A stretch of 64,000 bases of DNA from assembly GCA_016195185.1 (NCBI GenBank), contig JACQAA010000054.1, forward strand, positions 92 to 64,091, written 5' to 3'. The notes below the pieces were generated by a model. That model worked only from the letters and a program-made list of their open reading frames with translations, did no database searches and was not told the DNA's origin. A program made the translations under genes and the position numbers. Shown one piece after another: positions 2,757 to 49,574 of the stretch (its first letter is position 1; the number at the start of each line of letters is the position of its first letter). The DNA is from Pseudomonadota bacterium (GTDB taxonomy: Bacteria; Pseudomonadota; Alphaproteobacteria; Micavibrionales; UBA2020).

Positions 2757-3898
2757 CCGGCCCGCTCAAGGGACTGAAGGTTCTCGAATTCGCGGGTATC
2801 GGCCCCGGCCCCTTTTGCGCGATGATGCTGGCCGATATGGGAGCCTCGGTTATCCGCATAGACCGCCCCGGTGGCGCCGGCATCGACGGAATAAACATGA
2901 GCCGGGATATCACAGGTCGCGGGCGGCGGTCTCTGGCGCTTGACTTAAAGAAACCGGCGGCAACGGATATAGCCCTGAAGTTAGTTGAACAAGCGGACGC
3001 CCTGCTCGAGGGGTATCGCCCCGGCGTGATGGAAAAACTCGGTCTCGGTCCGGAGGTGTGCCGGATACGGAATCCCCGCCTTGTCTATGGCCGTATGACG
3101 GGATGGGGCCAGACAGGACCACTGGCCAGCACGGCGGGACATGACATCAACTACATCGCATTGTCCGGGGCCCTTTATGCGATGGGCGATCCCGCTCAGC
3201 CGCCCACACCGCCGCTCAATCTGGTCGGTGATTATGGCGGCGGCGGTTTATTGCTGGCGTTTGGCATGGTCTGCGCCCTGCTGGAATCGCGTCAGTCGGG
3301 ATTGGGTCAGGTAGTGGATGCGGCGATGACGGACGGTTCAGCCCTGTTGATGACGATGATCTATGGCTTGAAAGCCTCTGCGACCTGGAATAATGCCCGG
3401 GGGAAAAATTTTCTTGACGGCAGCGCGCCATTTTATGGGTGCTATGAATGTGCCGACGGAAAATATGTGGCAATCGGGGCACTGGAACCGCAATTTTACG
3501 CGCAGCTGCTGGAAAAAATTGGTCTCAGTAATCACGGCCAGCAATACGATTCATCCGCCTGGCCCGCACTGAAGGGCGAATTCGCCCGCCGCTTCAAGAC
3601 AAAGACGCGCGAAGAGTGGTGCGATATCATGACAGATGCTGATGTATGTTTTACCCCTGTCCTCAACCTTGACGAGGCACCGGGTCATCCTCATAACGCA
3701 GCGCGAAAAACATTCCTCTCTTCTGACAGGGTAACGCAGCCAGCCCCCGCCCCACGCTTCAGCCGCACGGCCGCCACACTCCAGCATGGTCCGCCCATGA
3801 TAGGCAAACACAGTTTCAATGTTCTGCAGGAGTTCGGTTTCAGTGAAGATGATTGCCACGACCTGGTGAGAAAAGGCGTTGTGTTTACCGCCTCGTGA
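2753..3898 (+). CDS. CoA-transferase family III protein, alpha-methylacyl-CoA racemase-like
   Basis: [35 protein letters not shown] and [15 protein letters not shown] are CaiB/BaiF family signatures, and the closest resemblance is to AMACR/Mcr. An ATGA overlap (2753-2756) joins it to the upstream thiolase. Confidence 0.8.
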
Positions 3899-4187
3899 AA
3901 AATGGTTGAGAGCGAATCACCACCGTTGGTGATAACGGCGAGAACATTTAAAGACGGATAGGCATTGGGATTATTTTTTTAATTCCCAGAAAAATAGTTG
4001 TCAGAAGAGCAAACGAAGGCTGTCTTCAGAAATAACCGCAAGGCCGTCACGGCGGCTTAATTTCTGAATATTTTCCGTGACAAGCGGGCACAGAATTCCA
4101 AAAAGAAAAACGGTTCCCGTCTACTTTGGTTTTATAGTTCTGAAAAAGAAATTATCTATCATATAGAAAATTAGTATTGGCTATTGA

Positions 4188-4207
4188 TAACATTATTGAT
4201 AATGTTA
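4188..4207. promoter_or_regulatory. perfect palindrome TAACATTAT-TG-ATAATGTTA, candidate operator upstream of fadA
   Basis: A 9-bp perfect inverted repeat with a 2-bp spacer sits in an AT-rich 330-bp intergenic region. It ends 55 bp before the fadA ATG at 4263. Confidence 0.35.
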
Positions 4208-4262
4208 CTGAAATTAAAAACCACCTGACGTGAATCAGCGCATCAACCGAAAGAGGCTCCCC

Positions 4263-5438
4263 ATGACCGAAGCGAGAAAAGTTGTTATTGCCGGATATGT
4301 ACGCTCCCCCTTTACTCCCGCAGGCAAAGGAGAACTAAAAGATGTTCGCGCCGATGAGTTGATGGCGCAAACGGTGGCTGGCCTCATTAAGCAAACAGGT
4401 GTTGACCCCAACCTGATCGAAGATTTCAAGCTGGGCTGCTCGATGCCGGAAGGCGAGCAGGGCCTCAATGTTGCGCGGCACGTGATATTTGCGGCACATC
4501 TTCCCACGACGATTCCAGCCATCACTATCAACCGCTTCTGTGGTTCATCCATGCAAGCGATCCATGATGCAGCCGGGGCCATTGCCATGGGCATGGCCGA
4601 TGCCGTGATTGCGGGTGGCGTTGAATCCATGAGCCGCGTGCCGATGGGCGGATTTAATCCGCTCCCGAACCCACAGCTCTACAAAGAGTATCCCGCAGCC
4701 TATATGGGCATGGGCGAGACGGCGGAAAACGTGGCTGATCGCAAGGGCGTGAGCCGAGCAGATCAGGAAAAGTTTTCCCTGTCTTCCCAGTTCAAAGCGG
4801 CAGCGGCCAAAAAAGAGGGCAAGTTCAAAGAAGAAATCGTACCTATCGTCAAGAAAGACGGTAAATCCGTGACGGAAGACGGTTGCCTGCGCCCCGAAAC
4901 AACGCTGGAGGGTCTGGCAAAACTGAAGCCGGCCTTCAAAACAAACGGCTCCGTAACCGCGGGCGCCTCTTCACCAGTGACGGACGGCGCCTCCGCAGTA
5001 TTGGTCTGCTCTGAAGAATTCGCGAAGAAGCACAACCTGACTATTCTTGCAGAAATAAAATCTTTCGCCGTTACCGGCCTCGACCCGGACATGATGGGCA
5101 TGGGGCCCGTGAGCGCGGCTAACAAAGCACTGGATAAGGCAGGCCTGACCATCAAGGATATTGATATTTTTGAGCTGAACGAAGCCTTTGCCTCGCAATC
5201 TATCGCCTGCATCAGGGAACTCGGCCTCGATCCCGAAAAAGTCAACAAACAAGGGGGCGCCATTGCGCTCGGCCATCCGCTCGGCGCTTCCGGCGCGCGG
5301 ATTACCGGCAAGGCGGCAAAACTGCTGCATGACGAGGGCGGCGAATATGCCATGTCCGTGATGTGCATCGGCGGCGGTCAGGGTATTGCGACTATCCTCA
5401 AAAAACCCGACAACAGTCACAAGGCGCCGAAACCTTAA
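4263..5438 (+). CDS. fadA: acetyl-CoA C-acyltransferase / 3-ketoacyl-CoA thiolase
   Basis: Motifs seen are NRFCGSSMQA (active Cys), GHPLGASGARI and CIGGGQGIA. The ORF track starts at a GTG at 4230, and the first ATG is at 4263 (MTEARKVV). The protein ends with an extra tail, KKPDNSHKAPKP. Confidence 0.9.
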   Translation: MTEARKVVIAGYVRSPFTPAGKGELKDVRADELMAQTVAGLIKQTGVDPNLIEDFKLGCSMPEGEQGLNVARHVIFAAHLPTTIPAITINRFCGSSMQAIHDAAGAIAMGMADAVIAGGVESMSRVPMGGFNPLPNPQLYKEYPAAYMGMGETAENVADRKGVSRADQEKFSLSSQFKAAAAKKEGKFKEEIVPIVKKDGKSVTEDGCLRPETTLEGLAKLKPAFKTNGSVTAGASSPVTDGASAVLVCSEEFAKKHNLTILAEIKSFAVTGLDPDMMGMGPVSAANKALDKAGLTIKDIDIFELNEAFASQSIACIRELGLDPEKVNKQGGAIALGHPLGASGARITGKAAKLLHDEGGEYAMSVMCIGGGQGIATILKKPDNSHKAPKP

Positions 5439-5463
5439 AAGAAATATATAGGGAGTCCGAAAC

Positions 5464-7974
5464 ATGGCGATCAAAAAAATAGCGGTTATCGGCGCAGGCG
5501 TTATGGGGGCGGGAATTGCCGCCCAGGCAGCAAATGCGGGGTATGATGTAGAACTGCTGGACCGCCCGGCACCCTCTGGCGCTAACCGCAGCGCTATTGC
5601 GGAGGGCGCTCTTGAGAAGCTGCTGAAAACGAAGCCCGCGCCCCTCATGCATCCTAAAAATATCAAAAAGATTCGCGCCGGCAACATGGAAGACGACGCA
5701 GCGCGCCTGAAAGAGTGTGACCTGATTATCGAGGCCGTGTTTGAAGATCCCAAAGTGAAGTTCGACATCTTCCAGAAAATCGACGCCAACCGCAAGGAGG
5801 GCTCGATTGTCGCCTCCAACACCTCAACCATTCCGCTCCATGATCTGATCAATGGCCAGTCCGAGGCCCTCAAGAAAGACTTCGTGATCACACACTTTTT
5901 CAACCCGCCGCGCTATATGCAGCTGCTGGAGCTGATCACCTCCGAATATAATGACCAAGGGAAAGTGGCCGAGCTGACTCAGTTCCTGGACGAAAAAATG
6001 GGCAAGGGCGTTATCCCCTGCAATGATACGCCGGGCTTTATCGGCAATCGCATCGGCACCTTCTGGATGCAGTGCGCGATCAATGAGGCCTACAATAAAA
6101 ATCTTACCATCGAGGAAGCGGATGCCCTCATGGGCAAGCCGCTGGGGATTCCCAAGACCGGCGTATTCGGCCTGCTCGATGTGGTGGGGCTGGACCTGAT
6201 TCCACATATCAGCAAAAGTTTGATATCGAAACTCCCCGTTGACGATGGCTATTGCAAGGGTACTGTTGCCCATCCAGTTATCGACAAAATGATCGCGGAT
6301 GGTTTTACAGGCCGTAAAACCAAGGCAGGGGGTTTCTATCGCCGCACCGAGGCAAAGGAAGATTTATCTGTTGACCTCAATACCGGCAAAACGCGGCCTA
6401 AGAAAAAATCCAAGTTACGCGCGGTCAGCAATGCCGAAAAGAAAGGCATCCGCGGACTGTTGGATACGAAAGACAAAAACGGGGAATATGCCTGGTCGGT
6501 CATGAAGCAGACCCTGTGCTATGCCGCCGAACATGTGCATACGATTACCGGGAATATCACTAATCTCGATCAGGCCATGAAGCTTGGTTATGGGTGGAAA
6601 TACGGCCCCTTTGAGATGATCGACAAGATGGGGACGGACTATTTCATCAAACGCCTTAAAGCGGATGGCGATACCGTTCCCGCCTTCCTGCAGAAGGCAG
6701 CCGGACGCACGTTCTACAGCGTTGCAAATGGCAAACAGCAATTCCTTAACAAAGACGGCAACTATGAAGAAGTGCAGCGTCCTCCCGGCGTGTTGCTGCT
6801 CTCTGACGTCAAGCTGGCGGCAAAGCCGGTGAAAAAAAATGCCTCGGCCAGCCTCTGGGATATCGGCGATGGCGTGCTGTGCCTGGAATTCCACACCCCC
6901 GGAAACACGCTGGATAAAAAAATCTTGAAAATGATCAACCATGCCTGCGATACCATCGGTGATGGCAAGGGAAAATACAAGGCACTCGTCATCCATAATG
7001 AAGGTGAAAACTTCTCCGCCGGCGCTAACCTGAAAGCGGCCGTCGCCGCAGTCAAAGCCAAGCAATATTGGCTGGTGGAGCGACTGGTCAAATTGGGCCA
7101 GAATACCCTGAAACGCCTCAAATACGCACCGTTCCCCGTCGTATCTGCCCCGTCCGGGCCGGCGCTGGGCGGCGGCTGTGAAATCCTGCTCAACAGCTCC
7201 CGTGTCCAGGCCCATGCCGAGACTTATGCCGGACTGGTGGAAGTCGGCGTCGGCCTGCTGCCCGGCTGGGGCGGCTGCACAGAAATGCTGACCCGCGCGA
7301 AACAAAACAAAAGACTGCCGGGGGGGCCCCTACCCGCCGTGGCCACGGTATTTGAAACCATCAGTACCGGGAAAGTCGCCACTTCTGCCTTTGAAGCGAA
7401 AGACCTTTATTTCCTGCGCCAGACCGATGGCGTGACGATGAATAAGTCCCGCCTGCTGGCCGATGCAAAGGCCCAGGCGCTTGAGATGGCGAAAAATTTT
7501 ACTCCCGAAAAACCGTTCGACATGGAGTTGCCCGGCCCCGCAGGTCTTGCCGCGATTGATCTGGCAGTGGACGGCTTTTACCTGAAAGGTGCGGCCACGC
7601 CCTATGATGTCGTGGTGTCGGAGAGAGTGGCAAAAGTTTTGACAGGCGGTGATGACGCCGGCCCCGGTGTTAAACTCAGCCAGGACGATCTGCGTGCACT
7701 CGAGCGAAAGCACTTCATGGCGTCGGTGCGTGACAGCCGTTCATTCGATCGTATTATGCACATCTTCCGCACTAAAAAACCGCTGCGTGAAAAACCTATC
7801 GCCGGCAAGAAACCCGCCGATCTGCGCACGGAAGCTGATCGTCCTGGCGTTCTGACACGCACCCTGGAGCGCGGCAAGAAAACCGCCAGGCAAGCTTTCA
7901 AAGCCGTCTGTGCCAATGACAACAGACATCTGTGCAAAAGTAAAAAACCCAAGGCTCACAAGCCAAAGCCTTAA
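5464..7974 (+). CDS. FadN-type bifunctional 3-hydroxyacyl-CoA dehydrogenase / enoyl-CoA hydratase
   Basis: The N-terminus has the Rossmann motif IAVIGAGVMGAGIA (3-hydroxyacyl-CoA dehydrogenase). A C-terminal crotonase-like segment reads ALVIHNEGENFSAGANL. A further extension of about 60 aa, rich in Lys and Pro, ends in KKPKAHKPKP. Confidence 0.85.
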   Translation: MAIKKIAVIGAGVMGAGIAAQAANAGYDVELLDRPAPSGANRSAIAEGALEKLLKTKPAPLMHPKNIKKIRAGNMEDDAARLKECDLIIEAVFEDPKVKFDIFQKIDANRKEGSIVASNTSTIPLHDLINGQSEALKKDFVITHFFNPPRYMQLLELITSEYNDQGKVAELTQFLDEKMGKGVIPCNDTPGFIGNRIGTFWMQCAINEAYNKNLTIEEADALMGKPLGIPKTGVFGLLDVVGLDLIPHISKSLISKLPVDDGYCKGTVAHPVIDKMIADGFTGRKTKAGGFYRRTEAKEDLSVDLNTGKTRPKKKSKLRAVSNAEKKGIRGLLDTKDKNGEYAWSVMKQTLCYAAEHVHTITGNITNLDQAMKLGYGWKYGPFEMIDKMGTDYFIKRLKADGDTVPAFLQKAAGRTFYSVANGKQQFLNKDGNYEEVQRPPGVLLLSDVKLAAKPVKKNASASLWDIGDGVLCLEFHTPGNTLDKKILKMINHACDTIGDGKGKYKALVIHNEGENFSAGANLKAAVAAVKAKQYWLVERLVKLGQNTLKRLKYAPFPVVSAPSGPALGGGCEILLNSSRVQAHAETYAGLVEVGVGLLPGWGGCTEMLTRAKQNKRLPGGPLPAVATVFETISTGKVATSAFEAKDLYFLRQTDGVTMNKSRLLADAKAQALEMAKNFTPEKPFDMELPGPAGLAAIDLAVDGFYLKGAATPYDVVVSERVAKVLTGGDDAGPGVKLSQDDLRALERKHFMASVRDSRSFDRIMHIFRTKKPLREKPIAGKKPADLRTEADRPGVLTRTLERGKKTARQAFKAVCANDNRHLCKSKKPKAHKPKP

Positions 7975-8004: not shown

Positions 8005-9240
8005 ATGTTTAGCGGGGATATGGATAGGGACAAGATCTCCCGCTTCTGGGATTTCGGCCCCGTCAACTACATGAACCATGGCTCTTTTGGCGCCTGTCCG
8101 CAGCCAGTGCGAGAATTCCAGCAGCAGCAACGCGAGACCCTGTTGAAAAACCCGATGGATTATTTTGCCAATGAAAATGATTCTCTCCTGACCGAAAATC
8201 GTCTCTTCTGGGCAGGCTTTGTTGACGCCGACCCGGAAGGCCTGGTGCATGTCGAATGCGCGACGCTGGGGGTCAATACAGTGATGAAGTCGCTGGCATT
8301 ACGCGGCTATTTCCGGCCCGGTGACGAGATCCTCCTGACCAATCACGGCTATAACGCCTGTAATAACGTGGCGCAGGAAATTGCCCATTTAACCGGAGCT
8401 AAAGTCGTTATTGCTCCTGTGCCATTTCCTATACAAACTTCCGCTCAGGTGACGGAAGCCGTTCTTGGCACGGTTACAAAAAAGACCCGGCTGGCCCTGG
8501 TCGATCACATCACGAGCGCAACAGCGCTCATCTTCCCGATCGAAGATATCGTGCGGGGCTTGAAAGAGCGCGGGGTGGAAACGCTGGTGGACGGAGCTCA
8601 TGCTCCCGCCCATGTATCACTGAGGCTACAGCAGCTTGGCGCAGCATTTTATACGGGGAACGGTCACAAATGGCTCTGTGCCGCACCTGGCTGCGCTTTT
8701 CTTTATGTGCGGGAAGACTTCCGCGACCGTATCCGCCCCATGACAACCAGTCACGGGGCCAATGATCCCAACCCCGATATTGCCGCCTTTCAAAAAGCTT
8801 TTGCCTGGCAGGGCACCAGGGACACCACACCCTGGTTTACCCCCAAGATAGCTTTTGAAACACTCTCCGGCCTGCATCCCAAAGGGATGCTGGGTCTGAT
8901 TGCGGATAATCGTCGGCTGGCGCACCATGGCTATCAACGGTTGCTGGATGCCTTGGGACAAAAACCCCATGCACCCGATCATATGCGGGGAAGCATGGCT
9001 ACGATTGTTATTCCCCCCGGAGATCCTGACCGGCTGCGCCATGATATTCGCGAACGGGAGCAGTTCGTAACCCAAATCGGGGCGATGCCGCCCCTGCTCG
9101 GGTCGGGGCGCATATTCCGGATCTCTGCTCAGGCTTATAACACGCCAAAACAATATGAGCGGCTGGCAGAAGTTTTGATCGAGACGCTGGAGCGGGAAAA
9201 GCGCGGCCAGCTTTTGGCGATGCCCGGCAGAAAAAACTAG
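8005..9240 (+). CDS. class V aminotransferase-fold PLP enzyme (isopenicillin-N epimerase / cysteine desulfurase-like)
   Basis: MNHGSFGACP opens the protein and TGNGHKWLCAAPGCAF carries the PLP lysine. Both are typical of this subgroup. Confidence 0.7.
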   Translation: MFSGDMDRDKISRFWDFGPVNYMNHGSFGACPQPVREFQQQQRETLLKNPMDYFANENDSLLTENRLFWAGFVDADPEGLVHVECATLGVNTVMKSLALRGYFRPGDEILLTNHGYNACNNVAQEIAHLTGAKVVIAPVPFPIQTSAQVTEAVLGTVTKKTRLALVDHITSATALIFPIEDIVRGLKERGVETLVDGAHAPAHVSLRLQQLGAAFYTGNGHKWLCAAPGCAFLYVREDFRDRIRPMTTSHGANDPNPDIAAFQKAFAWQGTRDTTPWFTPKIAFETLSGLHPKGMLGLIADNRRLAHHGYQRLLDALGQKPHAPDHMRGSMATIVIPPGDPDRLRHDIREREQFVTQIGAMPPLLGSGRIFRISAQAYNTPKQYERLAEVLIETLEREKRGQLLAMPGRKN

Positions 9241-10091
9241 AACCCGATTGTCCAAGACCGTTCGGCATAAACATCCCGACCCGATATGGTACGTTCATAT
9301 GCGAAGCTGTCTCTGATAAAATTATCGTAGTCTTTATAGATATATTTCATTTGGCTGGTATAGAGGCACAGACAGGCATGAAGCTTTCTCAATTCCGCAG
9401 CCGTCGCGATGAGTACATCGCCGCTTGCCTTAAAAGCCGCGGAAGATTCTTGATTCAGAGCGGCGACGTAGAGGGATAATGCTTCACGCCGGTAATTACC
9501 CGTATCGGGGACGAAGTGCCGAAGATAATAATAGGAATTAATGGACTCCCGCATCATCTGCCCCGTCACCGGCGGCAGAGCGGCATTGCTGCCGATTTGT
9601 TGCATCCGGCTCTGCAAAACACCCGGCCAGAGAATATAGGGCCGGTCTTCGTAGAATTTGACCGGCACGGTCTTGATACGCTTGCCCACCTCAAAAGCGA
9701 TTCGGTGATCAATATGCGTCCCGGCAGCCAGAGGGAAATAGGCGATCTCAACTTTGTTCAGGGAGAAAAAATCGCTCAGCCGCTTCCCTAGCTGGTCAAT
9801 ATACGACTCATCCTCTGTGGTCAGTGGGCTGAAAAACAGATTTTTCAGCGGCTTATATTTCGAATTTCGATCCGGCGCATCCAGCTCGTCAAGGTAAAAA
9901 GGGCTGGCGCCGATTTGTTTTTGGGCCAGCAAGTCTTCTTGTTTTCTATTCTCTGAATTCGTCCCGGCTGAAAAAATATTCAGGACAGACACCTCATCCG
10001 AAGCTGCCACATGCCTCTGCATCAAAACACCACAAGAGAGAATGGCATCATCGAGATGCGGAGAGACTATGCATATCTTTTTCATACACAT
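9237..10091 (-). CDS. PIG-L/LmbE family N-acetylglucosaminyl deacetylase
   Basis: The N-terminal ICIVSPHLDDAILSCG motif (PH-x-DD) and a downstream HIDH match the family. The gene is visibly more AT-rich than its neighbours. Its 3' end overlaps the convergent upstream gene by 4 nt. Confidence 0.7.
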   Translation of the reverse strand: MCMKKICIVSPHLDDAILSCGVLMQRHVAASDEVSVLNIFSAGTNSENRKQEDLLAQKQIGASPFYLDELDAPDRNSKYKPLKNLFFSPLTTEDESYIDQLGKRLSDFFSLNKVEIAYFPLAAGTHIDHRIAFEVGKRIKTVPVKFYEDRPYILWPGVLQSRMQQIGSNAALPPVTGQMMRESINSYYYLRHFVPDTGNYRREALSLYVAALNQESSAAFKASGDVLIATAAELRKLHACLCLYTSQMKYIYKDYDNFIRDSFAYERTISGRDVYAERSWTIGF

Positions 10092-10130
10092 ATTATATAC
10101 TAAGTCAAATTTCTGAGGTAAGCTATTTTT

Positions 10131-11114
10131 ATGTTCTCAGGATCGCCCTATTCTCTTGTCAGCGAGATGCTGGAAGCTCCCGGTCTGCTGCGCCATTTTG
10201 ATGAAATGCAGGGGGCTGATTGGCGGCGGGCCATCGCAGATAAAAAGAAATTGCTGATCACGGGAGAAGGCTCAAGTCGCATTTTTCCCGCAAAGAACAT
10301 GATCGACCTTTCTCTCAAGCAAGGTGGGGCATGGCAGATCTGCACTGAAGGCGCCCGGCAAGCAGCGGAATATGAATTAGGACAATTTATCGTCATCGGC
10401 GCCAGCAACAGCGGGCGCACACGTGAGCTGATCTCCCTGTTTGAGAAACTGACACATAAAAACATTACCCGTTACGGAATCACGGCAACCGCAGGCAGCA
10501 GGCTGACAGAAATTGTGACTGACCTCCGCTTGCTGAACTGCGGCCAGGAAAAAGCCACTGCCGCCACAAAAAGCGTGGTTGAGCAGGCGCTGGTGTATCA
10601 GTCTCTTCTAGCTGGCGCAGAATGGCGGCATAAACACCGGGCGGCCGACTATTGCGAAAAGGTTTTGGGGCAAACCGTCTCCCCGGATATAACCGATAGC
10701 GTCAGGAATGCCCCGGTTGTTTATTTTTCCGGCCGCAACAACGGGGTCGCAGAAGAACTGACATTGAAAACCAACGAAATCGTCAGAAAAAGGAGCGACT
10801 ACCTCGAAGGCACCTACGCCGTTCATGGCATCGAGGAGGTCATGGGTAAAGATGACGCCGTGATTCTGATAGAGCCGTTTCAGGAAGAGATTGAAAAATA
10901 TCAGAGCATATTGGCGACCGGAATCGGGGTCAAAATAATCGCCGTTGCCTCCTTTGATACGCCCTTCCCGATGATCAAAGTTCCTGCGCTGCCGGGTTTT
11001 GATGGATATTTTCAGCTTCTCGCCGGCTGGAATGTTCTGGTGGCAGCAGGTCTGGCCAATGGCGTGAATTTGGACCGGCCAAAGCGTGCCCGTAAAGTAG
11101 GTAATGAAATCTGA
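10131..11114 (+). CDS. SIS-domain sugar-phosphate isomerase/deaminase (GlmS C-terminal / AgaS-like)
   Basis: LLITGEGSSRIFPAKN and VIGASNSGRTRELISL are SIS phosphosugar-binding motifs. The length of 327 aa fits two SIS subdomains. Confidence 0.7.
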   Translation: MFSGSPYSLVSEMLEAPGLLRHFDEMQGADWRRAIADKKKLLITGEGSSRIFPAKNMIDLSLKQGGAWQICTEGARQAAEYELGQFIVIGASNSGRTRELISLFEKLTHKNITRYGITATAGSRLTEIVTDLRLLNCGQEKATAATKSVVEQALVYQSLLAGAEWRHKHRAADYCEKVLGQTVSPDITDSVRNAPVVYFSGRNNGVAEELTLKTNEIVRKRSDYLEGTYAVHGIEEVMGKDDAVILIEPFQEEIEKYQSILATGIGVKIIAVASFDTPFPMIKVPALPGFDGYFQLLAGWNVLVAAGLANGVNLDRPKRARKVGNEI

Positions 11115-15333: not shown

Positions 15334-15939
15334 ATGTCGTTATTCGACCGTGTTGCAGACGCCGCCCGGAACCTGTCCTTTCTCAAGACGCTTATCAAGG
15401 CCGTCAATAAAGGGAACGTCGGGGCCGTGAAGGCTCTGTTGGCGGAAGGGGCTGATTCGAACCAAAAAGATGGTGATGGCAACACGGCCCTGATCTGCGC
15501 GGCAATTGGCAATCGTGCAGGGATTGTGAAGCTATTGCTCGACAAGGGCGCTGACGTCAATGCACAGAATAATGCCGGTGACACCGCTCTGATCGTGACG
15601 GCGCGCAAGGGTTATACGGAGATTGCGCGCCTCCTCCTTGATAAGGGCGCAGGACTCGACAAACAGAACAATCTCGGCGACACGGCATTGATTTTGTCAG
15701 CGGGGAATGGTCATGCCAAAATCGTGCGGCTGCTGCTCGAGCGCGGTGTCCGTCTCTATGACGAGAATAATAACCGCAGCACGGCGCAGATCAAAGCGCT
15801 GCGGAACAATGATGCGGAGATTGTGCAAATGCTGAACGAAGAACACAGGGCACGGCAGCAACTGGCTGAGGAAAAAGCCCGCGCCAAAATCAGGGCCAAG
15901 GCGGAAGAGCGTGAAGGCAAGAAGTCAGGCGATGCCTAA
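15334..15939 (+). CDS. ankyrin-repeat protein
   Basis: There are four or more tandem repeats of about 33 aa (GNTALICAA..G...IVKLLLDKGADVNAQNN). These are followed by a charged helical tail. Confidence 0.85.
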   Translation: MSLFDRVADAARNLSFLKTLIKAVNKGNVGAVKALLAEGADSNQKDGDGNTALICAAIGNRAGIVKLLLDKGADVNAQNNAGDTALIVTARKGYTEIARLLLDKGAGLDKQNNLGDTALILSAGNGHAKIVRLLLERGVRLYDENNNRSTAQIKALRNNDAEIVQMLNEEHRARQQLAEEKARAKIRAKAEEREGKKSGDA

Positions 15940-16134: not shown

Positions 16135-16350
16135 GTGTGCCTCCTTTATTGTCCTCTAAAAAATGTAATCTACGCCTAAAAACAGCAGAAGTATTTGACA
16201 AGAGTTAAATAACGATCAAACAGCAATGCTGAATTTTTAGCAGCTTCAACACGATTTTACAATGCATTTGCGGTTTTCGCGGATATGGCATTCTGCGGCG
16301 CACAAAAGAATACTGCCGTATTCAGCAACAACGCTACCGTGAAAGCCTGT

Positions 16351-17508
16351 CTATTCGTCGATAGTGCGTTCAGAATCAACTGTTTTTTTGGCGCGCACGC
16401 TGGCGGATTTGAGCTGGCCGCAGGCGGCCAGAATATCGCGGCCGCGGGGTTTGCGCACGGGGGCGTCATAGCCGGCTTTCTCGAGAAGGCGGGCGAAGGA
16501 ACTGATTCGCTCCTCCGCAGAACACTCAAAGCCGCTGCCCTCCCAGCCATTAAAGGGGATGATGTTGACCTTGCACGGCATATCCCGCAACAACACCGCC
16601 AGACGTTTCGCATCCTCATCCGTGTCGTTCACCCCTTGCAGCATGACGTATTCGAAGGTGATACGCCGGATGTCACTGACGCCGGGATAGGTGCGGCACG
16701 CCTCCAGCAGTTCCGCCAGCGGATATTTATTGTTGATCGGCATGATCTCCGAGCGCTGCTCATCCGTGGTCGCGTGCAGGGAGATCGCGAGATTGACGCC
16801 CAGTTCCTCGCCGCAGCGCCGGATCAGCGGCACCACGCCGGAGGTCGAGAGCGTGATGCGGCGTTTGGAAATGGCCAGACCATCGGCATCCATGCAGATT
16901 TTCAGGGCCTGCGCGACATTATCATAGTTATAGAGCGGCTCGCCCATCCCCATCATGACGATATTGGTGAGATCGCGTCCCTCCGCTGAGTGTGTTTCGC
17001 CGGACTGGGGCCACTCGCTTAGCACGTCCCGCGCATACATGATCTGCTGGAGAATTTCATGAGCGCCGAGATTGCGCACCAGCGGCTGGGTCCCCGTATG
17101 ACAGAACTTGCAGGTCAGGGTGCAGCCGACCTGCGAGGAGACGCAGAGCGTGCCCCGCCTCGCCTCGGGGATAAACACCGTTTCGACCTGCTGACCATCT
17201 GACAGCGAGAGCAGCCATTTGATCGTGCCGTCCGAGGAGCGTTGCTCCGTCATCACCTTCGGGCGCTCTATCGAATATTTTTCACTCAGTAATTGCCGCA
17301 TATCCCTGGGCAGATTGGCCATGTCCACAAAATCCTGCACGCCGCGCTGGTACATCCAGTGCCAGACCTGCTTGGCACGAAAAGCAGGCAGGCCATGCGC
17401 TGCCAAAGTCTCCTGCAAACGTGACAGGCTCAGGCCGATCAGCGGCGCGCGCCCTCGCGCATCGGCGGGCGGAGCAGAAAATCTGACGGCATGGGACACA
17501 ACACTCAT
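16351..17508 (-). CDS. rlmN: 23S rRNA/tRNA (adenine-C2)-methyltransferase RlmN (radical SAM)
   Basis: The radical SAM motif is [12 protein letters not shown] and the RlmN opening is [12 protein letters not shown] place the start at the ATG at 17508..17506, which forms an ATGA overlap with the upstream gene's stop. The ORF-track start at 17646 would overlap that gene by 142 nt. Confidence 0.9.
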
Positions 17509-19400
17509 CGCGGCCCCGTATCCGTCGGAGTTTTCTTGTGAGGAGGGGGTGCGGGCCAAGGCGACACGCTCCGCACGCATCGAACAGCCGCCTGAGAATT
17601 CTGCGGCTGCGTCAATTGGGATCCATCGGTAAACATTTTCTCCCACACTCTATCCGGGGGGGCGGGCGGTACTGAGGAGGAGATATACCAGTCGCCAAGG
17701 ATACTATGGCTCCCCCAGTGACCATAGTTTTTACGGACCCCCTCGTTGTAGGTTCCTTTAAATGCCCCGGCACGCCTTGCCTCGTACATGGCCGCCAGAA
17801 TATCCTTGTCCGGCAGGGCCCAGTCATGATGCCCGTGCGCTCTCAGGTGTTTGGTAAGGTCTACCGCCCGGTTAAAAAATGTGCTTAGTTGGTCATCGCC
17901 TGAGAGATCATTGCTGGAGAAATATGTGTCCGGCGCATCCTTGGCCGTGACATACCAGTCCCGGCCCTTATGACAGCCGAGATAGATTGAGCCATCAATG
18001 GCCACATCCCCCGGTTTCAGCAGATCTCCTGATTCCGGGCACACTTCCCAGTCCGGATATTTCTTGCACAGGCGCTCCAGATGGCCGGGGGCTGCCGTTT
18101 TTCCCTCATTCAGCATGATCTGCTTATTCGTGACATCACGCTGGAAAGCCGCTGTTGTTGTCAGGCCATGGCCGTTATAGGCGATCTGGCAAAAACCAAA
18201 ATCAAAATCCTTGATCAGCCTCTCCGCAAAAACGGCCGGCGGCGCCTGAGCCTGGCCTCCCTCTACAAAAATAATATTGTATTCCGTGTTTTGCGGACCA
18301 GCCATAATGATCCAGCTTTCCGAGATTTTTTTCTTGGTCAGCAGGGATGTTTTCATTGTGGTCACGACGGGATCCGAAATATTTTCCGTGGTCCCTCTCT
18401 CAAAATAACCATTTCTGTAACCAGCTATCTTCGTCGGCACAATACCCAGCCCCGCCACGGCAAAGGCCCGTTCCAGAAATTGCTTGTTTTGTTTTTTATC
18501 ACCGCGAGTCTTGAGAAAAATATCCACGTCCTTGACCGGGCGGCCATTCAATTTGTCGCGCAGGGCGCCGCCAGCGATCACGGCCTCTGGCGCCCCAATA
18601 TTCTGCACCGCGGCCAAAACCTGCCACCACTCTTCCGTGGGCAGAGACCTGATCAGCCCTTCCAGGGATTTCTGCACGGGATCTTCCACGGCGACAGGCA
18701 CCTTCTGTACAGGTGCCGGCGCGGCAGTCTTTGCTGCAACGGCGGCGGCCTCCACAACAGCGGCATTCATCCCGCACTCACGCAGAATTCTGGCGTAGCG
18801 CGCGTATTTGTCGGCAGGTATCCCGGCCAGTTGTTCGGGGCTGTCCGGCGCCTTGGCGCCCCAGGTGACCAGCAGGCGCATCATGGGTTTATCTTCGCGC
18901 AAGAGCGCTATCTTCAGATGGTCCCAGCCGGGCACGATCTTGTGGTTGTCCCAGAATGCCCGATCGAACAGCTCCCGTGCCCGCTCACAGTTCCCGCTTT
19001 TGACAGCCGCGGTCAGCGCATCATCCAGTTCAGATGTCGGAAGGTGCGGCGTGAGAGCCGTGGCTTCTTTACCGGCAGGCGGCACATGGGCTTTTACCAT
19101 TTCTGCGAGCTCTGTATTTGTGGGGGGGACGACCAATAGCGCCTGGGCGAGCTTATCAACAACAGCGCCGTTTTCCAGGAGCACAGTCACCATTTTTTCA
19201 TCATTTCTAACGACAGCCCAATCCAGCGCGGTCCAGCCGGCTGAATCCTCCTGATTAATGTTGGCGCCCCGCTTCAACATCGACCGGACAGCGCCAATTT
19301 CTCCCCTAAAGACGGCGTGTTGCCACGCCGCAGGAGTGGGCGGCCCCTGGAATTTGAATGGATTACCTGGGAGTTTTTTGAATATGCGACCGATGCCCAT
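17505..19400 (-). CDS. ankyrin-repeat / Pol-beta-type nucleotidyltransferase / DUF1566-like fusion protein
   Basis: The N-terminal ANK repeats include [35 protein letters not shown]. The middle has [21 protein letters not shown] (G[GS]...DxD, as in the CCA-adding/poly(A) polymerase head) and later [11 protein letters not shown]. The C-terminus has [16 protein letters not shown]...WYISSS...AAVRCVRS, which resembles the DUF1566/Lcl C-terminal domain. Confidence 0.6.
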
Positions 19401-19541
19401 GTTTAATTAACTCACGCGTAACTGACTGTTGCTGCAAATTGGACATAATAAATGATTTAACTAATATGTCAACCATAATTCATGATTACTATTAGTTTTC
19501 AAATGGATAGACTAAGAATAACGATCCTGTTGAGAAAGCTG

Positions 19542-43211: not shown

Positions 43212-43287
43212 GCTGTTGTAGCTCAGTTGGTAGAGCACATCATTCGTAATGATGGGGTCGGAGGTTCAAATCCTCTCAACAGCACCA
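43212..43287 (+). tRNA. tRNA-Thr (anticodon CGU)
   Basis: A manual cloverleaf gives acceptor GCTGTTG/CAACAGC, D-arm GCTC-AGTTGGTA-GAGC, anticodon arm CATCA-TTCGTAA-TGATG, T-arm GGAGG-TTCAAAT-CCTCT, and an encoded CCA. Confidence 0.9.
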
Positions 43288-43344
43288 TTTTCGTTGTTTG
43301 ATCCCCAGGCCCTCCTCACAATGCCCGCTACCGATTCCAAAAGA

Positions 43345-43373
43345 TTGACATGGCAGGATTATTTATTATTTTT
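43345..43373 (+). promoter_or_regulatory. possible promoter for tRNA-Tyr (TTGACA followed by a T/A-rich -10 region)
   Basis: A consensus -35 TTGACA lies at 43345-43350. The best -10 is only TATTTT with a spacer of about 16 nt, which is weak. Confidence 0.25.
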
Positions 43374-43440
43374 TGTGCTTGCTGTTTTTATGGATCGTCG
43401 GTAGTCTTGGCACTCGATTTTTACCCGTAAAACTTCCTGC

Positions 43441-43525
43441 GGAGGGGTGGCCGAGTGGTCAATGGCAGCAGACTGTAAATCTGCCCTCTACGAGTTCGAA
43501 GGTTCAAATCCTTCCCCCTCCACCA
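43441..43525 (+). tRNA. tRNA-Tyr (anticodon GUA), long variable arm
   Basis: A manual fold gives acceptor GGAGGGG/CCCCTCC, anticodon arm GCAGA-CTGTAAA-TCTGC, a long variable arm, T-arm GAAGG-TTCAAAT-CCTTC, and an encoded CCA. Confidence 0.9.
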
Positions 43526-43647
43526 TTTTACTGTCCCAGACAGTTTCTCCAAGTACCCAGAAGTTTAAAAAACCATTGCAAAATAAGCGTTAAATGGCTT
43601 ATTCTGTACTTGTAAGTTTTTCTGTGCCTTTGCGTATCCCAAAAAAT

Positions 43648-43709
43648 TGGGGGTATGTGAGGGGGTAGAAAATCAGCATAAAATACATAAATAAGGAATT
43701 ATACCCCCA
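43648..43709. repeat. TGGGGGTAT motif pair (inverted) just upstream of int; candidate integrase arm-type sites
   Basis: TGGGGGTAT is at 43648-43656 and its reverse complement ATACCCCCA is at 43701-43709, abutting the int ATG. A variant, GAGGGGGTAG, is at 43659-43668. Confidence 0.5.
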
Positions 43710-44927
43710 ATGGCACTCACAGATATGGCCTGCAAAAACGCAAAACCCAGCACAAAACCTTATAAGAAAGCCGATTCCCACGGCCTCTATTTGTACGTCA
43801 CGCCAAACGGTTCACGGTATTGGAGGCTCAAGTACCGATTCATGGGTAAAGAAAAAGTGTTGGCGCTGGGGGTATATCCAGAAGTTTCCTTAATTGAGGC
43901 GCGAGATAGGCGGGAGGAAGCCCGTAAGCTGCTGGCTTCGGATATAGACCCGAACATGGCAAAACAACAACGAAAGCATATAGCCGCGATAAGCGCCGAA
44001 AACACTTTTGAAGCTATCGCCAAGGAATGGCATGAAAACCGGAAATCAAAGTGGTCAGTGAACTATGCCAGAGACATTCTGCACCGCATGGAACTGGATA
44101 TTTTTCCGGCGCTGGGCATAACACCTATCAGTACCATTACCGCGCCACAGTTCTTGTCCGTATTGAGGCAGATTGAAAAAAGAGGCGCGCTGGAGATTGC
44201 ACACCGTGCCATGCAGACCTGCGGACAGGTGTTCCGCTATGCCATAGCCACCGGGAAGGCCGATAGGAACCCCGCCGCTGACCTGCAAGGGGCGCTGCAA
44301 CCCGTCCGGCATACCCACTTTGCCGCGTTGGAGGCCAAAGACCTGCCGGAGTTTCTGCAAGCCCTTGAACGGAATGAGGCGCGGCTTTATCAGCAAACCC
44401 GCCACGCGGTAAAACTGCTCATGCTGACATTCGTCAGAACAAGCGAGCTGATTAACGCCAAATGGGAAGAATTTGATTTTGAGGCAAAGCGCTGGGAGAT
44501 TCCAGCTGAGCGCATGAAGATGAGAAAACCCCATATCGTGCCCCTTTCCCGGCAGGTTGTTGATATTCTGCGGGAACAGCAAAAACTGACCGGAAAATGG
44601 CAATGGGTATTCCCCAATCAGGTGCGCCCCATGAAGTCTATGAGCAATTGCACCGTCCTGAATGCGCTGAAGCGTTTGGGCTATAAAGACCGCATGACCG
44701 GACACGGCTTCCGCGCCCTTGCCATGTCCACCATCAAGGAAAAACTGAATTACAGGCATGAGGTTGTGGACAGGCAGCTTGCCCACGCGCCCCGTAACAA
44801 GGTGGATGCCGCCTATGACCGCGCCAAGTTTCTGGATGAACGCAGGAAAATGATGCAGGACTGGGCGAACTATCTGGACGCGGCTGCTTCACAGGGCAAG
44901 GTTATTGTGGCCAAATTTGGAAAGTAG
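43710..44927 (+). CDS. int: tyrosine-type integrase, P4-like (DUF4102 N-terminal arm-binding domain)
   Basis: The N-terminus LTDMACKNAKP..KPYKKADSHGLYLYVTPNGSRYWRLKYRF is the DUF4102 signature. The catalytic region reads HGFRA...LAH...Y. Confidence 0.9.
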   Translation: MALTDMACKNAKPSTKPYKKADSHGLYLYVTPNGSRYWRLKYRFMGKEKVLALGVYPEVSLIEARDRREEARKLLASDIDPNMAKQQRKHIAAISAENTFEAIAKEWHENRKSKWSVNYARDILHRMELDIFPALGITPISTITAPQFLSVLRQIEKRGALEIAHRAMQTCGQVFRYAIATGKADRNPAADLQGALQPVRHTHFAALEAKDLPEFLQALERNEARLYQQTRHAVKLLMLTFVRTSELINAKWEEFDFEAKRWEIPAERMKMRKPHIVPLSRQVVDILREQQKLTGKWQWVFPNQVRPMKSMSNCTVLNALKRLGYKDRMTGHGFRALAMSTIKEKLNYRHEVVDRQLAHAPRNKVDAAYDRAKFLDERRKMMQDWANYLDAAASQGKVIVAKFGK

Positions 44928-45031
44928 AAGATACGTCTCCCTGCTGGCACAAGCCGGGGGGTAGGGGTAAAAATCGACTATAGGGCGGGAAACCTCCTAA
45001 AGTACCTAAACTTAGGTTTAGCACCGCCTAT

Positions 45032-48000
45032 TTACGCCGCATCCTTTTTGATTGATTGAATATCCAGCTTCGGCAATGACCGGACTATTTTGAGAGTTTC
45101 GAGGCTGACGGTGATGACGCGCTGGAACAGCTTGAGGGAATAGGCTGCGTCGCCGACTGTTTCAATGGCATACAGGTTGGCGTCGTTGACGATGCCGCTA
45201 TCCTTGTCGTTTTTCACGCCTTGGCGTTCCATGACCCATTCGAGGGCTGGTTTGCCGTTGACGACGTAATCATAGGCTTCCACGGGAATGTCACGGATGG
45301 TGATATAGTCGTTATAGACGACGGTGGACTTGTCGCCCTTCGTGGTAAATTTCATTTTGGTGACGTAATATTCTTTTTCGCCCAGTTTGCGCCCGCCTGT
45401 TTCCAGTGTCACGTCATAGGGCTTCGCGGATTCATAGCCGACGTGCAGGTCGGCCAGCGCCCGCCCTGCCTTGCTGAAAGCCCAGAAATCCGCAGCCTTC
45501 TTCACACAAGGGATGCGAGGCAACTGTTTGGAGAGGTTATCGGCGTATTTCTCGCGATAGCCTTCGGAGTGCAGGAGGCCATAGATATAATAGAAAACGT
45601 CTTCCTTGCTGATTTTCTCGACGCCGGGATAGGCTGCCTTGAAATGCGCCAGTCCTGCGTCGGTGATTCCGTCTTTTCTGCCAGTGCTGTTACCTGCGAA
45701 CAAGCCGCCATCACTGTCTTCCTCGTCTTCATAAAGATAAAGCGGGAAGCATTGGCCTTTTTCAACCACCTCCAAATCAGGCATAGCATTGGTTACTATT
45801 GCGCTAAACCCCGCCCGTGCGCCAATACCGGAAACAAGGATTCCAAGGTTACTTGTGTCTTCATCTGGGAAGATACTTTGCATCTGGCCAACACGGTGGT
45901 TAAACATTTTATCGTAATAAACCCATTGCTTTGTGAAAGGACGGTAAAGGCTCTTATTTAAAGCACCCTTCCTGTAGTTTCCTTTAATCAGCTTTTCTAA
46001 CTTCGGAATAAGGCTGCTAGACCAACTAATTTTTTTAGAGTCTCTGTCAATAAAATCTTCTACAGAAAGTTTCGAGTTTTTAAACCCGTCAACCTGGCTG
46101 TTATAAAATTCAATCATCCTCTTCATATTTTTGGATACGGATTCTTTTGAGGAGTTGTAGCACCATGCATCACGATTTGTACCAAGGCCAAGGGAATAGT
46201 TTTTAAAAATGGTGGCATTAACATCATTTCTCTTATCCCCCATAGAAATATATCCATCAAACGCCACGTCGCGCTGACCAATCCAATCATTATATTTATC
46301 GGGTATAATTTTCTGCCACCCGTTTTGTTCTTGAATCCCATTTATGCTGCTTAAAAACTTTATACGGTTTAATTTATCTTCCGTGGACAATTCGTTGCCG
46401 ATATCATGATAAAAAATATTTCCATGAGATTTGGCTTTTGGATTCTTAACAAACAAGGAAATTGAAATTCCCGTCATGCTTCCAGAGCCAAAAATATTCC
46501 CACCTTCTTTTGCACGGCCTCTACTTAGCATATTTTTACGAACATCGCCCCGCAGGTTAAAGACGTAAATATTGGAATATTCTTCGGCAAGACATTTCCT
46601 CATGCCATCCGCGAATCCACGCTCAATCCATGCACCTCCAGAAACATAGGCCATGACGCCGTTTTCACCAATCCTCTCTGAACCCCAACGAATTGCGCGG
46701 ATATACGAATCCTTCAGCGCCTTTGTTGTGTTTGCAGTCGAGTGCGTGCCGTAAGTTTCATCTATCCTACTGTCCAAAAATGGATAGCTAATATTTGCCG
46801 CGTTATCATTTTCACTCTTTTGCCCGATAGAATAAGGGGGATTGCCGATGATGACACGAATATCCAGTGCCTTTTGCCTTTTACGGCGTGCGCTGTTGTC
46901 TTCCATTAAGACGCTCACCAAATCATCCTTCTCGTATAGTTGGAAAGTGTCTGTCAGTAGGATACCTTGAAAAGGCTCATAATCGCCACCCGCTATCCCG
47001 TGATAGGCTGCCTCGATATTGATTGCGGCAATGTAATAGGCCAGCAGGACAATTTCATTGGCATGGATTTCATACGCATATTTATGCGGAAGGTCTTTGG
47101 GGTCGATCAGACCGCTTTGCAACAGGCGCGTGATAAACGTGCCAGTGCCCGTGAAGGGGTCGAGGATGTGAACACCTTTACTGCCAAGCGTCTCGCCAAA
47201 TTCCTGTTGCAGAACGTCATTCACGGAATGAATAATAAAATCGACCACCTCGACCGGAGTATAAACGATCCCAAGTTTTTCCGACAATTTAGGGAAGGCG
47301 TTTTCGAAGAATGTACCATACAGTTCTTTCACGATCTTTTGTTTCGCAGCGGCAGAGTCAATACCGGCAGCGCGGCGTTTCACGCTGTCATAGAATTGCT
47401 CCAGCGTATCGGTTTCCTTGTCGATGCTGTGGTCGTGCAAGACTTCCAAGACATGTTGCATCGCCATTGACACGGGGTTATGGCTGGCAAAGCTGTATTT
47501 GTCGAACAGCGCGTCAAAGACAGGCTTAGTGATAAGGTGCTGGGCGAGCATTTCGATGACTTCATCATCGGTGATCTGCCCGTTCAGGTCGTCGCGCAAC
47601 TCTTCCACGAAAGAATGGAAGGCAGCGGATTCCTTTTCGTTCTTCGGATTCTTGACAATAGCGGAAATGCGCGTGATGTGGGTCTGGGCGATTTTAGCGA
47701 TGTCTTTCGCCCAGTCTTCCCAATAATTCCGGTTGCCGCATTTCTTGACGATTTTGGCGTAAAGGGCACGTTCGATTTCCCCCACCTCAAAGCGCATGGT
47801 AAATTGGCCGTCAGAAGTTTTCTTCTTTTCCGCTGTGCCGATAGTATTCGTCCCTCTGCCTGTGGGCTTGTTGCTGCCTTTCTTTTGCTTAGGCGCAATA
47901 TCCCCCGTGACGGCAATCACTTCCATGCGGCTGTTGTTCTTGCCGGTCAGGTCGAGTCTATTTATCGTGCCGTCAAAGCGGTCGTCATGCGAGCGCAGGG

Positions 48001-48550: not shown

Positions 48551-48842
48551 AGCAGATGTTTACGGTGCTTGCTTTGCAGAGGTCTTGCTTAAACAAAGCG
48601 GGCGATAAGTGGAAAAAATTTATGAACCTTCTGGATGATATTCTGCCCAAAAAGGGAAAAGCAACTCAGTTAAAATTGCCTATTTTTCCTGATGACGGCG
48701 ACTGAAAAGGACGTGCCAATTTTTCTTGCGCTAATCTGAACAACTTAACCCCGCTCATAAGGCCGCCTTTAGGCATCCGCAATTAGCTCAATAAAAACGG
48801 ACATCACATCTGTTTGCTTGTGTATTTTTTTGCAGAGGACGC

Positions 48843-49547
48843 ATGACTAAAAAATATCTTCCTGAACTAAAAGTCTATTCAATTGAACAGTTTGCAAAAA
48901 AATTAGGCTGTACAACACGGGATATTCTCCACTATGGGAGAACAGGCCAATTAAAACTATCCGTTTTGAGTAAGGGATGGACACTTGAATGCGGCTACTA
49001 TGAAGAAGCAGATAATGATGGTGGTCTGAACTGCATCCCCTGCGGAAATGTTCATTGCAGCCCCGGCACGGTGCTGGGGCTTTGGCAGTGTGGCGCAATA
49101 GAACTTGCCGGGGACGGCTCCGCCGTTAACCCCTCTTTTTATTTTAAAGACTATTCATACGCTGTACTTCCTGAGGACGGCAGGAAAAAAGACGTGATTG
49201 TGAAAGAACAGGATGTTGTGATCACCATCAAGGACGCCCTGGATTTTGAAGCGTCAGCCTCGGATCAGGCTCTCTCTGGCAGTGATTCAGAGAACACAGC
49301 TTCAGACGGCTACCTTTCTACACCTTATACAGGAGACCCAGGACGTCCATCCAAGGCAGCCCATCTTTATTTGAAAAAGTTTAAAGACCTTTGCAAAGAG
49401 GGCCAGGTAGCAGCTACTCTCGCGGAACAGTCCCGCCACTTGTTGCAATGGCTAGAGACAGAGCATCCCAGTATTCCTCACCCTACAGTAAGAGTTATCG
49501 AGAACAGAATCCGCTCCCTATACAACAAAGCCAGAACAGCCTCATAA
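48843..49547 (+). CDS. hypothetical protein with N-terminal excisionase/MerR-like HTH
   Basis: YSIEQFAKKLGCTTRDILHYGRTGQLKL resembles HTH_17-type motifs. I do not recognise the rest. Confidence 0.45.
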   Translation: MTKKYLPELKVYSIEQFAKKLGCTTRDILHYGRTGQLKLSVLSKGWTLECGYYEEADNDGGLNCIPCGNVHCSPGTVLGLWQCGAIELAGDGSAVNPSFYFKDYSYAVLPEDGRKKDVIVKEQDVVITIKDALDFEASASDQALSGSDSENTASDGYLSTPYTGDPGRPSKAAHLYLKKFKDLCKEGQVAATLAEQSRHLLQWLETEHPSIPHPTVRVIENRIRSLYNKARTAS

Positions 49548-49552
49548 GAAAA

Positions 49553-49574
49553 CCACGATATTTTAATATCGTGG
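49553..49574 (+). terminator. stem-loop CCACGATAT-TTTA-ATATCGTGG after the HTH gene
   Basis: A perfect 9-bp stem starts 6 nt after the stop codon. It is followed by GGTATTT. Confidence 0.4.

Follow-up and report, generated by a model that had tools for sequence, protein, structure and literature searches.

What does a bacterium use a nucleotidyltransferase (NTase) for when the enzyme is flanked by ankyrin repeats on one side and by a lectin-like domain on the other, and when its gene runs into that of a housekeeping RNA methyltransferase? The question is raised by a protein of 631 amino acids (aa) encoded at 17505..19400 (-) of a 64,000-nucleotide (nt) stretch of DNA from a Pseudomonadota bacterium (Alphaproteobacteria, Micavibrionales, UBA2020; assembly GCA_016195185.1, contig JACQAA010000054.1, positions 92 to 64,091). 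This whole stretch was analysed and is referred to below as the window. The open reading frame (ORF) is a 100% match to HY052_03375, which is annotated as a hypothetical protein in the metagenome-assembled genome (MAG) of a 'Proteobacteria bacterium'. The protein turned out to be a modular enzyme of four blocks, namely canonical ankyrin repeats, an ankyrin-like block, a compact NTase of the Pol-beta superfamily and, by the weight of the sequence evidence, a C-type-lectin-like Lcl_C domain. The active-site signature of the NTase is conserved and apparently complete, and its modelled fold is closest to that of enzymes adding nucleotides to RNA 3′ ends. The explanation that we favour, with a probability of roughly one half, is an active, ankyrin-targeted NTase with a nucleic-acid 3′ end as substrate and an accessory role in inter-organism conflict. 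A preliminary description of the locus, made from the letters alone, had read the protein as a fusion of three domains (ankyrin, NTase and DUF1566/Lcl_C). This reading was borne out by ankyrin matches above the profile cut-off, by PHROG 1614 and the predicted fold for the NTase, and by homologues and the crystal structure 8q4e for the Lcl_C domain.

A compact nucleotidyltransferase with a conserved active-site signature

The enzymatic part of the protein, residues 253-463 (18012..18644 (-)), is assigned by PHROG 1614, AlphaFold and Foldseek to a minimal class II-like NTase domain of the Gad2 / PHROG 1614 type and follows a linker that AlphaFold models with low confidence. PHROG 1614, annotated as 'nucleotidyltransferase', covers residues 260-457 with an E value of 7.8e-17. 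Pfam PolyA_pol (PF01743) gives 19 bits over residues 274-304, under its cut-off of 23, a threshold that is cleared by the homologue P0057 with 38.5 bits. Since Foldseek searches with the full-length model were swamped by designed ankyrin proteins, the NTase domain was modelled by itself, and residues 240-468 alone yielded an AlphaFold model with a predicted local distance difference test (pLDDT) value of 88.8 and a predicted template modelling (pTM) score of 0.85. The best Foldseek matches of this model were class II tRNA nucleotidyltransferases (E 1.4e-7, template modelling (TM) score 0.51, ~220 columns), in agreement with the kind of head that had been proposed from the sequence. All 46 PDB matches at E ≤ 1e-3 were RNA 3′-end NTases, comprising CCA-/A-adding enzymes (Thermotoga, Aquifex, Bacillus, human and plant), E. 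coli poly(A) polymerase and TENT5; the best structural matches (3wfr, 1vfg, 1miv and 3aql) had E values of 1e-7 to 1e-4 at 12-17% identity. Searches of the PDB with the whole-family profile were likewise dominated by ankyrins and were therefore redone with an NTase-only alignment, which retrieved human TRNT1 (E 2.7e-4).

In that comparison, motif A of the 631-aa protein, GG-x12-DxD (G277-G278...D291-V-D293; 18522..18572 (-)), aligned to motif A of TRNT1 including its DID, in keeping with the signature that the preliminary description had named. Judged by the conservation among 54 homologues, D291 and D293 are predicted to be metal-binding carboxylates. G277, G278, D282, D293, D400 and K447 are invariant in these homologues and D291 is conserved in at least 90% of them, which leaves a putative catalytic Asp triad (D291, D293 and D400) intact. 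According to the alignments, D400 is the candidate for the third carboxylate; it lies in F399-D400-F-G-F-C-Q (18186..18206 (-)), at the position of class II motif B. The resemblance of this stretch to the motif RDFTINA, noted beforehand, holds for the position and for D400, which is invariant also in Gad2 (where the counterpart reads FDFTVCMG), but not for the two arginines: the motif B site of the family reads (I/L)xxFDxG(L/F)CQ and lacks the RR of the class II RRD. In a wider alignment that also contained a 175-aa viral protein from IMG/VR, a Ralstonia phage NTase, two verified Gad2 proteins, two stand-alone metagenomic NTases and an exonuclease fusion, the sole invariant columns were an I, the GG, D291, D293 and D400. 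E373 in the TEYN strand was considered as third catalytic carboxylate as well and set aside, since Gad2 and P0112 have a Q at this position and D400 does not vary.

The closest characterised relatives by structure are thus the class II tRNA NTases and poly(A) polymerase I (PAP I), with a nearly identical motif A. The differences are a TM score of only ~0.5, the missing motif B RR, the missing neck, body and tail, and a restricted phyletic range. A CCA-adding enzyme or poly(A) polymerase proper was rejected, as the NTase of ~210 aa comes without tRNA-binding body, tail and motif B RR.

A second line of comparison leads to Gad2 (Gabija anti-defence protein 2), with which phages cancel Gabija defence and which was predicted to be an NTase by AlphaFold (10.1101/2023.05.01.538930). 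PF26128.2 (Gad2) is the database's precomputed tag for the 631-aa protein (P0001) and for most of its homologues; the tag is strong for P0002, P0003, P0005 and P0039, and for P0024 and P0006 it is weak or faint. The direct similarity is weak: an hhalign comparison with the verified Gad2 of Brevibacillus laterosporus (supplementary table 10 of 10.1101/2023.05.01.538930) gave a probability of 79% and an E value of 1.6e-5 over 45 columns only. What the 631-aa protein appears to have in common with Gad2 and the PHROG 1614 proteins is the same NTase of ~180-210 aa, with GG...DxD and FD.(G/T).C and without a tRNA-binding body, and its family also shares a C-terminal H..R..KYPD helix with the PHROG 1614 phage NTases. 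Verified Gad2 differs in being a phage or prophage protein of ~400 aa that lacks ankyrin repeats and whose C-terminal half is unrelated, whereas the 631-aa protein is chromosomal, stands in a putative operon with rlmN, carries ankyrin and Lcl_C modules and continues after the NTase with Lcl_C instead of a Gad2-like region.

Two ankyrin blocks precede the enzyme

The N-terminal block at residues ~20-106 (19083..19343 (-)) consists of two to three canonical ankyrin repeats. Pfam Ank_2 matched residues 25-82 with 39.6 bits (cut-off 27.3) and Ank reached 28.3 bits (cut-off 21.1), and AlphaFold predicted stacked helix pairs at 23-31/35-43, 58-64/68-76 and 83-88/96-105, with pLDDT values of ~90 over residues 21-80 and ~65-67 over residues 81-110. 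By above-cut-off profile matches together with helix pairs, the 631-aa protein is an ankyrin repeat protein. Of the Pfam families named in the preliminary description, Ank is hence above its cut-off, whereas PolyA_pol and Lcl_C stay under theirs when the 631-aa sequence is searched alone. The NCBIfam models for Dot/Icm ankyrin effectors (T4SS_AnkX/H/Y and others) reached at best 34.9 bits against a cut-off of 600, over the repeats at residues 24-82 only.

The canonical block is confined to the longer members of the family. A second, degenerate ankyrin-like block at residues 121-226 (18723..19040 (-)) is kept in all 54 aligned homologues and is modelled by AlphaFold with pLDDT values of ~80-98. 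In the family profile, this block aligns to the ankyrin repeats of Ankyrin-1/2, with one segment forming a recognisable repeat.

A C-terminal domain of probable Lcl_C type

The weight of the sequence evidence favours placing the C-terminal domain, residues 464-612 (17565..18011 (-); DGSIYLG...HGHxDWxLP...FKGTYN...YxSS...VRCVR), in the Lcl_C / DUF1566 family, as had been suspected from its AAVRCVR ending. Pfam Lcl_C (PF07603, cut-off 34.9) gave 27.7 bits for the whole protein and 31 bits (E 3.3e-7) for the last 168 residues, and all five aligned homologous C-terminal domains matched Lcl_C, the best with an E value of 3.9e-12. The corresponding profile retrieved the crystal structure of the C-terminal domain of Legionella Lcl, 8q4e (E 1.7e-4), and the conserved W-LP / YWSS / VRCVR core is visible in the alignment. 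The assignment rests on sequence, since the AlphaFold model is unreliable in this region (pLDDT < 50 from residue 545, with few covering sequences).

The C-terminal domain of Lcl has a C-type-lectin-like fold, is trimeric, binds glycosaminoglycans and is proposed to function in carbohydrate recognition and/or trimer formation (PMC11162425). The W-LP, YWSS and VRCVR core points to the same fold in the 631-aa protein. Lcl differs in being a secreted, collagen-stalked trimeric adhesin, whereas the 631-aa protein has the domain behind an enzyme and no apparent signal peptide, none being visible by eye in its sequence.

The Lcl_C domain is restricted to three clusters, P0001 (the 631-aa protein), P0002 and P0003, and a homologue search with the C-terminal domain as query returned only two proteins. 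The three Lcl_C-bearing proteins also have in common a Pro-/Lys-rich tail (17508..17564 (-)) ending in KKTxxx(S/D)TGP(K/R), whose sequence conservation could reflect either a functional protein tail or constraint from the overlapped translation-initiation region of rlmN.

Family build, distribution and related fusions

A profile search through all of 1.84 billion cluster representatives, with family clusters defined at 50% identity, returned 84 proteins below 1e-30, ~70 of them with the full core, and more than 1000 proteins at 1e-10, which among the matches listed were mostly ~190 aa long and consisted of the NTase only. With their 350-420 aa, most homologues comprise just the counterpart of residues 121-463, namely the ankyrin-like block and the NTase. 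This combination is the basal build of a catalogued family; canonical ankyrin repeats are added in P0007, P0025, P0066, P0076 and P0084, and the addition of Lcl_C and the position before rlmN are uncommon variants. The preliminary description had regarded the combination as undescribed. For the ankyrin-like block and the NTase this does not hold, as they are catalogued by the precomputed PF26128 tag, by PHROG 1614 and in the ~70 clusters; only the Lcl_C addition is rare.

A scan of one genome per species (185,579 species) yielded 31 loci, from Micavibrio, alphaproteobacterial and Rhodospirillales MAGs and from a few genomes labelled Bdellovibrionales, Patescibacteria group or 'bacterium'. Two or three tandem or clustered copies per locus were found in Micavibrio or alphaproteobacterial MAGs (L005/L009, L008/L034, L036, L037 and L038). 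The paralogues of L005/L009 lie at 4007-6049 and 9150-10043, in L005 next to genes for an IS1 transposase and a PemK toxin. A search of 2.9 million viral contigs yielded no more than two distant relatives (23-27% identity), which argues for a cellular, not a viral, clade.

Three further contexts of the NTase deserve mention. The metagenomic protein P0104 (403 aa) has a DEDDh 3′-5′ exonuclease of the RNase_T type at residues 5-175 fused to the same NTase, which is 44% identical to the NTase domain of the 631-aa protein over aligned positions. In Ralstonia phage DU_RP_I (L042), a small NTase homologue is encoded at 2980-3621, between the genes for DNA primase and DNA polymerase; T7-like Autographiviridae have a homologous small NTase inside the replication module. 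In giant viruses, small NTases of similar structure (Foldseek E 1e-6 to 1e-5, TM ~0.48) are joined to ankyrin, F-box, BTB or leucine-rich repeat (LRR) modules, for instance in Terrestrivirus (A0A3G4ZKD7), Megavirus baoshan (A0A3S8UYK4) and Pithovirus (A0A4D5XFC4). This likeness is confined to structure (11-18% identity), and these proteins of eukaryotic viruses are uncharacterised. Further matches to the NTase model in BFVD came from Klosneuvirus, Orpheovirus, Pandoravirus and Cedratvirus, which are giant viruses of amoebae.

The gene overlaps rlmN in a narrow clade

The proteins P0002 (42% identity) and P0003 (40%) agree with the 631-aa protein in the N-terminus and in the whole architecture. 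Because the N-terminus MGIG(R/K).F recurs in both, the start codon is taken to be correct, and because the full architecture recurs, a fused-gene or frameshift artefact as well as a chance ORF were rejected.

Downstream, the gene overlaps rlmN, which encodes a dual-specificity RNA methyltransferase (16351..17508 (-); TIGR00048, 408.5 bits, cut-off 290). The ATGA stop/start overlap that had been reported at 17508-17505 is real (17505..17508 (-); TGA at 17507-17505, rlmN ATG at 17508-17506): the coding strand at the junction reads GGG CCG CGA TGA GTG, with the TGA and the ATG counted as having three bases in common. The annotated rlmN start is real as well, since the N-terminus MSV(V/A/S)SHA of RlmN is kept in relatives and reads MSVASHASKF and MSVSSHASRF in two related loci. 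A sigma-70-like promoter candidate (TTGACA-16-TATTAT, 11/12 matches; 19445..19472 (-)) is located ~45 nt upstream of the start codon, within a divergent intergenic region of ~140 bp that is shared with kdsB, and a terminator-like hairpin followed by a T run (16311..16330 (-)) is found 20 nt past the rlmN stop, both as consensus matches. A consensus scan detected no promoter-like site between this promoter candidate and the rlmN terminator. The 4-nt overlap and the flanking promoter-like and terminator-like sites suggest that the 631-aa gene and rlmN, as its second gene, form a two-gene operon with its own sigma-70-like promoter. The GC content of the gene (0.564) and its GC at third codon positions (GC3, 0.622) are inside the range of the neighbouring genes, which indicates a native composition, and recent horizontal transfer was rejected on these grounds.

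The preliminary description had seen in the overlap a tie between an accessory gene and rlmN, and a survey of relatives upstream of rlmN qualifies this statement. The position is kept in five related loci (that of the 631-aa gene, L003, L004, L011 and L029), three of which (L003, L004 and L029) likewise have the 4-nt overlap, and the link is limited to this narrow clade: most family members are located away from rlmN, in unrelated neighbourhoods. The divergent kdsB upstream of the 631-aa gene recurs in L011 and L029, and L003 and L004 have a different upstream neighbour, a methyltransferase gene of the PrmA/MTS type. Across the five loci, RlmN is 79-83% identical, whereas the NTase core is only 37-53% identical. 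The protein encoded before rlmN ranges from a core of 293 aa (L029) over 584-637 aa with Lcl_C to 656 aa with at least six ankyrin repeats and a non-Lcl tail (L011).

Downstream of the rlmN pair in L003, at 9112-10992, genes for a DsbC-like protein, a small SLT transglycosylase and a homologue of the DotD lipoprotein (3 kb off) form a trio that resembles a module of the type IVB or conjugation type. No secretion-system genes and no counterpart of this trio were found in the 64-kb window, and a type IV system near the 631-aa gene is therefore not supported.

An accessory role in inter-organism conflict and its alternatives

As we picture it, the enzyme would be active, with D291, D293 and D400 as the probable metal ligands, as their conservation suggests, and would move a nucleotide from a nucleoside triphosphate (NTP) to a hydroxyl group, most probably at the 3′ end of RNA or DNA. 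The ankyrin blocks, here together with the lectin-like domain, would deliver the NTase to a particular partner or oligomerise it; recruitment of a protein partner is most plausible for the ankyrin blocks, and Lcl_C could bind a glycan or drive trimerisation, by analogy with Lcl (PMC11162425). The function would be of a conflict type, be it predation, the manipulation of a host or prey, or the countering of nucleases in the manner of Gad2. The proposed 3′-end substrate follows from the structural neighbours, the exonuclease fusion in P0104, the position between primase and polymerase genes in the phage, and the sensing of DNA ends by Gabija. According to a 2026 review, the triggers of Gabija include such sensing and its countermeasures include Gad2, the mechanism of which is listed as unknown (PMC12904381). 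A conflict role is favoured over a housekeeping role because of the narrow distribution, the tandem copies, the divergence that is faster than that of RlmN and the swapping of end domains. Narrow distribution, tandem duplication, fast divergence and end-domain swaps are the usual marks of genes for inter-organism conflict.

Several observations weigh against this explanation. The direct similarity to verified Gad2 is weak (79%, 45 columns), and the 2026 review lists the Gad2 mechanism as unknown (PMC12904381). The 631-aa query alone stays under the Pfam cut-offs for PolyA_pol and Lcl_C, and the TM score to CCA-adding enzymes is only ~0.5. With the motif B RR and the tRNA-holding neck, body and tail absent, the substrate cannot be read from the fold. 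Furthermore, conflict genes do not typically have native GC and GC3 values or share a conserved operon with a housekeeping gene.

A tentative and on balance doubtful alternative is a translocated effector. A type IV or other contact-dependent system would deliver it into a prey cell or a eukaryotic host, where the NTase would nucleotidylate a target found by the ankyrin or lectin modules. The ankyrin repeats and the lack of a Sec signal visible by eye are consistent with it, as is the usual location of Lcl_C domains outside the cell or exposed at its surface (PMC11162425). The lineage in which the end domains vary and the paralogues are expanded counts the predatory Micavibrio among its members, a DotD homologue is encoded 3 kb downstream of the L003 orthologue, giant viruses that infect amoebae have structurally similar NTases in fusion with ankyrin, F-box, BTB and LRR modules, and the 64-kb window encodes three ankyrin proteins. 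However, the window yielded no secretion-system gene; the L003 trio, which has no counterpart there, is also typical of conjugation modules. The Dot/Icm effector models match via the repeats only (34.9 bits against 600), the composition is native, and the gene belongs to a putative sigma-70-like operon with rlmN. Ankyrin proteins of bacterial predators, moreover, can be cytoplasmic or periplasmic immunity proteins: in Bdellovibrio, such a protein serves self-protection, not host targeting (PMC4686830). The suggestion of a host-directed effector in the preliminary description had drawn on the ankyrin repeats alone and is neither backed nor refuted by a window without secretion genes, native GC and GC3 values and the housekeeping-like operon.

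An extension of this idea, which we consider unlikely, is that the 631-aa protein is the founding example of exported, ankyrin-guided Gad2-type NTases that Micavibrio-like predators or symbionts inject into prey or host. Nucleic-acid ends would then be capped or tailed, or a protein nucleotidylated, and the swappable end modules (ankyrins and Lcl_C) would set the target range, which would parallel the ankyrin, F-box and BTB fusions of NTases in the giant viruses of amoebae.

Quite improbable, in our view, is a domesticated Gad2-type counter-nuclease or immunity factor that neutralises a DNA-end-sensing nuclease, be it the cell's own, a prey's or a competitor's, with the ankyrins binding the nuclease. 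The precomputed PF26128 tag, the GG, DxD and FD..C motifs shared with verified Gad2, the finding that Gad2 is toxic or active in cells (10.1101/2023.05.01.538930) and the precedent for ankyrin-based self-protection in Bdellovibrio (PMC4686830) point in this direction. The likeness to verified Gad2 is limited to the NTase core, however, with the C-terminal half of Gad2 absent. No phage or prophage setting of the 631-aa gene was seen, its surroundings being chromosomal and of a housekeeping kind, and the 2.9 million viral contigs held just the two distant relatives. The PADLOC models matched ankyrin repeats only and never the NTase, and no Gabija or other defence genes are adjacent.

Least probable of all, and very unlikely, is a housekeeping partner of RlmN in RNA maturation that repairs or tails the 3′ ends of RlmN-methylated tRNAs or rRNA, with the operon reflecting a shared pathway, since a class II tRNA-NTase-like fold, an arrangement before rlmN that is kept with its stop/start overlap across related genomes, and the PrmA/MTS-type methyltransferase gene upstream in L003 and L004 are opposed by the absence of the family from nearly all RlmN-bearing bacteria (31 loci in 185,579 species), the location of most members away from rlmN, a core that is 37-53% identical where RlmN is ~80% identical, the missing tRNA-binding body and tail, and the lack of any role for ankyrin and lectin modules in known tRNA NTases.

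Whichever explanation applies, a conflict enzyme acting on 3′ ends or one of its alternatives, small NTases of the Gad2 type also exist outside phages, as a chromosomal, paralogue-rich family of Micavibrio-like Alphaproteobacteria that always carries ankyrin-like repeats. Through this family, the substrate of Gad2-type enzymes can be sought in a second, independent setting, with the ankyrin and lectin modules as handles for target pull-down. If export is true, the effectors of bacterial predators or symbionts would gain a new chemistry, and if intracellular action with RlmN is true, it would point to an unknown RNA-end modification; interest in the locus would rise much with export or a defined substrate. 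Either outcome would help to assign a function to the more than 1000 metagenomic clusters of small NTases.

Other features of the window

Besides the 631-aa protein, two ankyrin proteins bring their number in the window to three. Beyond rlmN and on the opposite strand, 15334-15939 (+) encodes an ankyrin-repeat protein of 201 aa, whose C-terminal tail is charged and helical; it matches PDC-M72A of PADLOC and the MzaA models of both NCBIfam and PADLOC via its ankyrin-repeat region. A 114-aa protein with two repeats is encoded at 54990-55334 (-) and adjoins a gene for a MASE1/PAS histidine kinase. Farther away from rlmN, a likely genomic island lies at 43212-50000, where the GC content drops to 0.41-0.50; tRNA-Thr and tRNA-Tyr genes (43212-43525) are followed there by a tyrosine integrase (43710-44927) and a Type ISP restriction-modification enzyme (45032-48550), whose listed ORF of 1172 aa starts in the helicase C-terminal domain.

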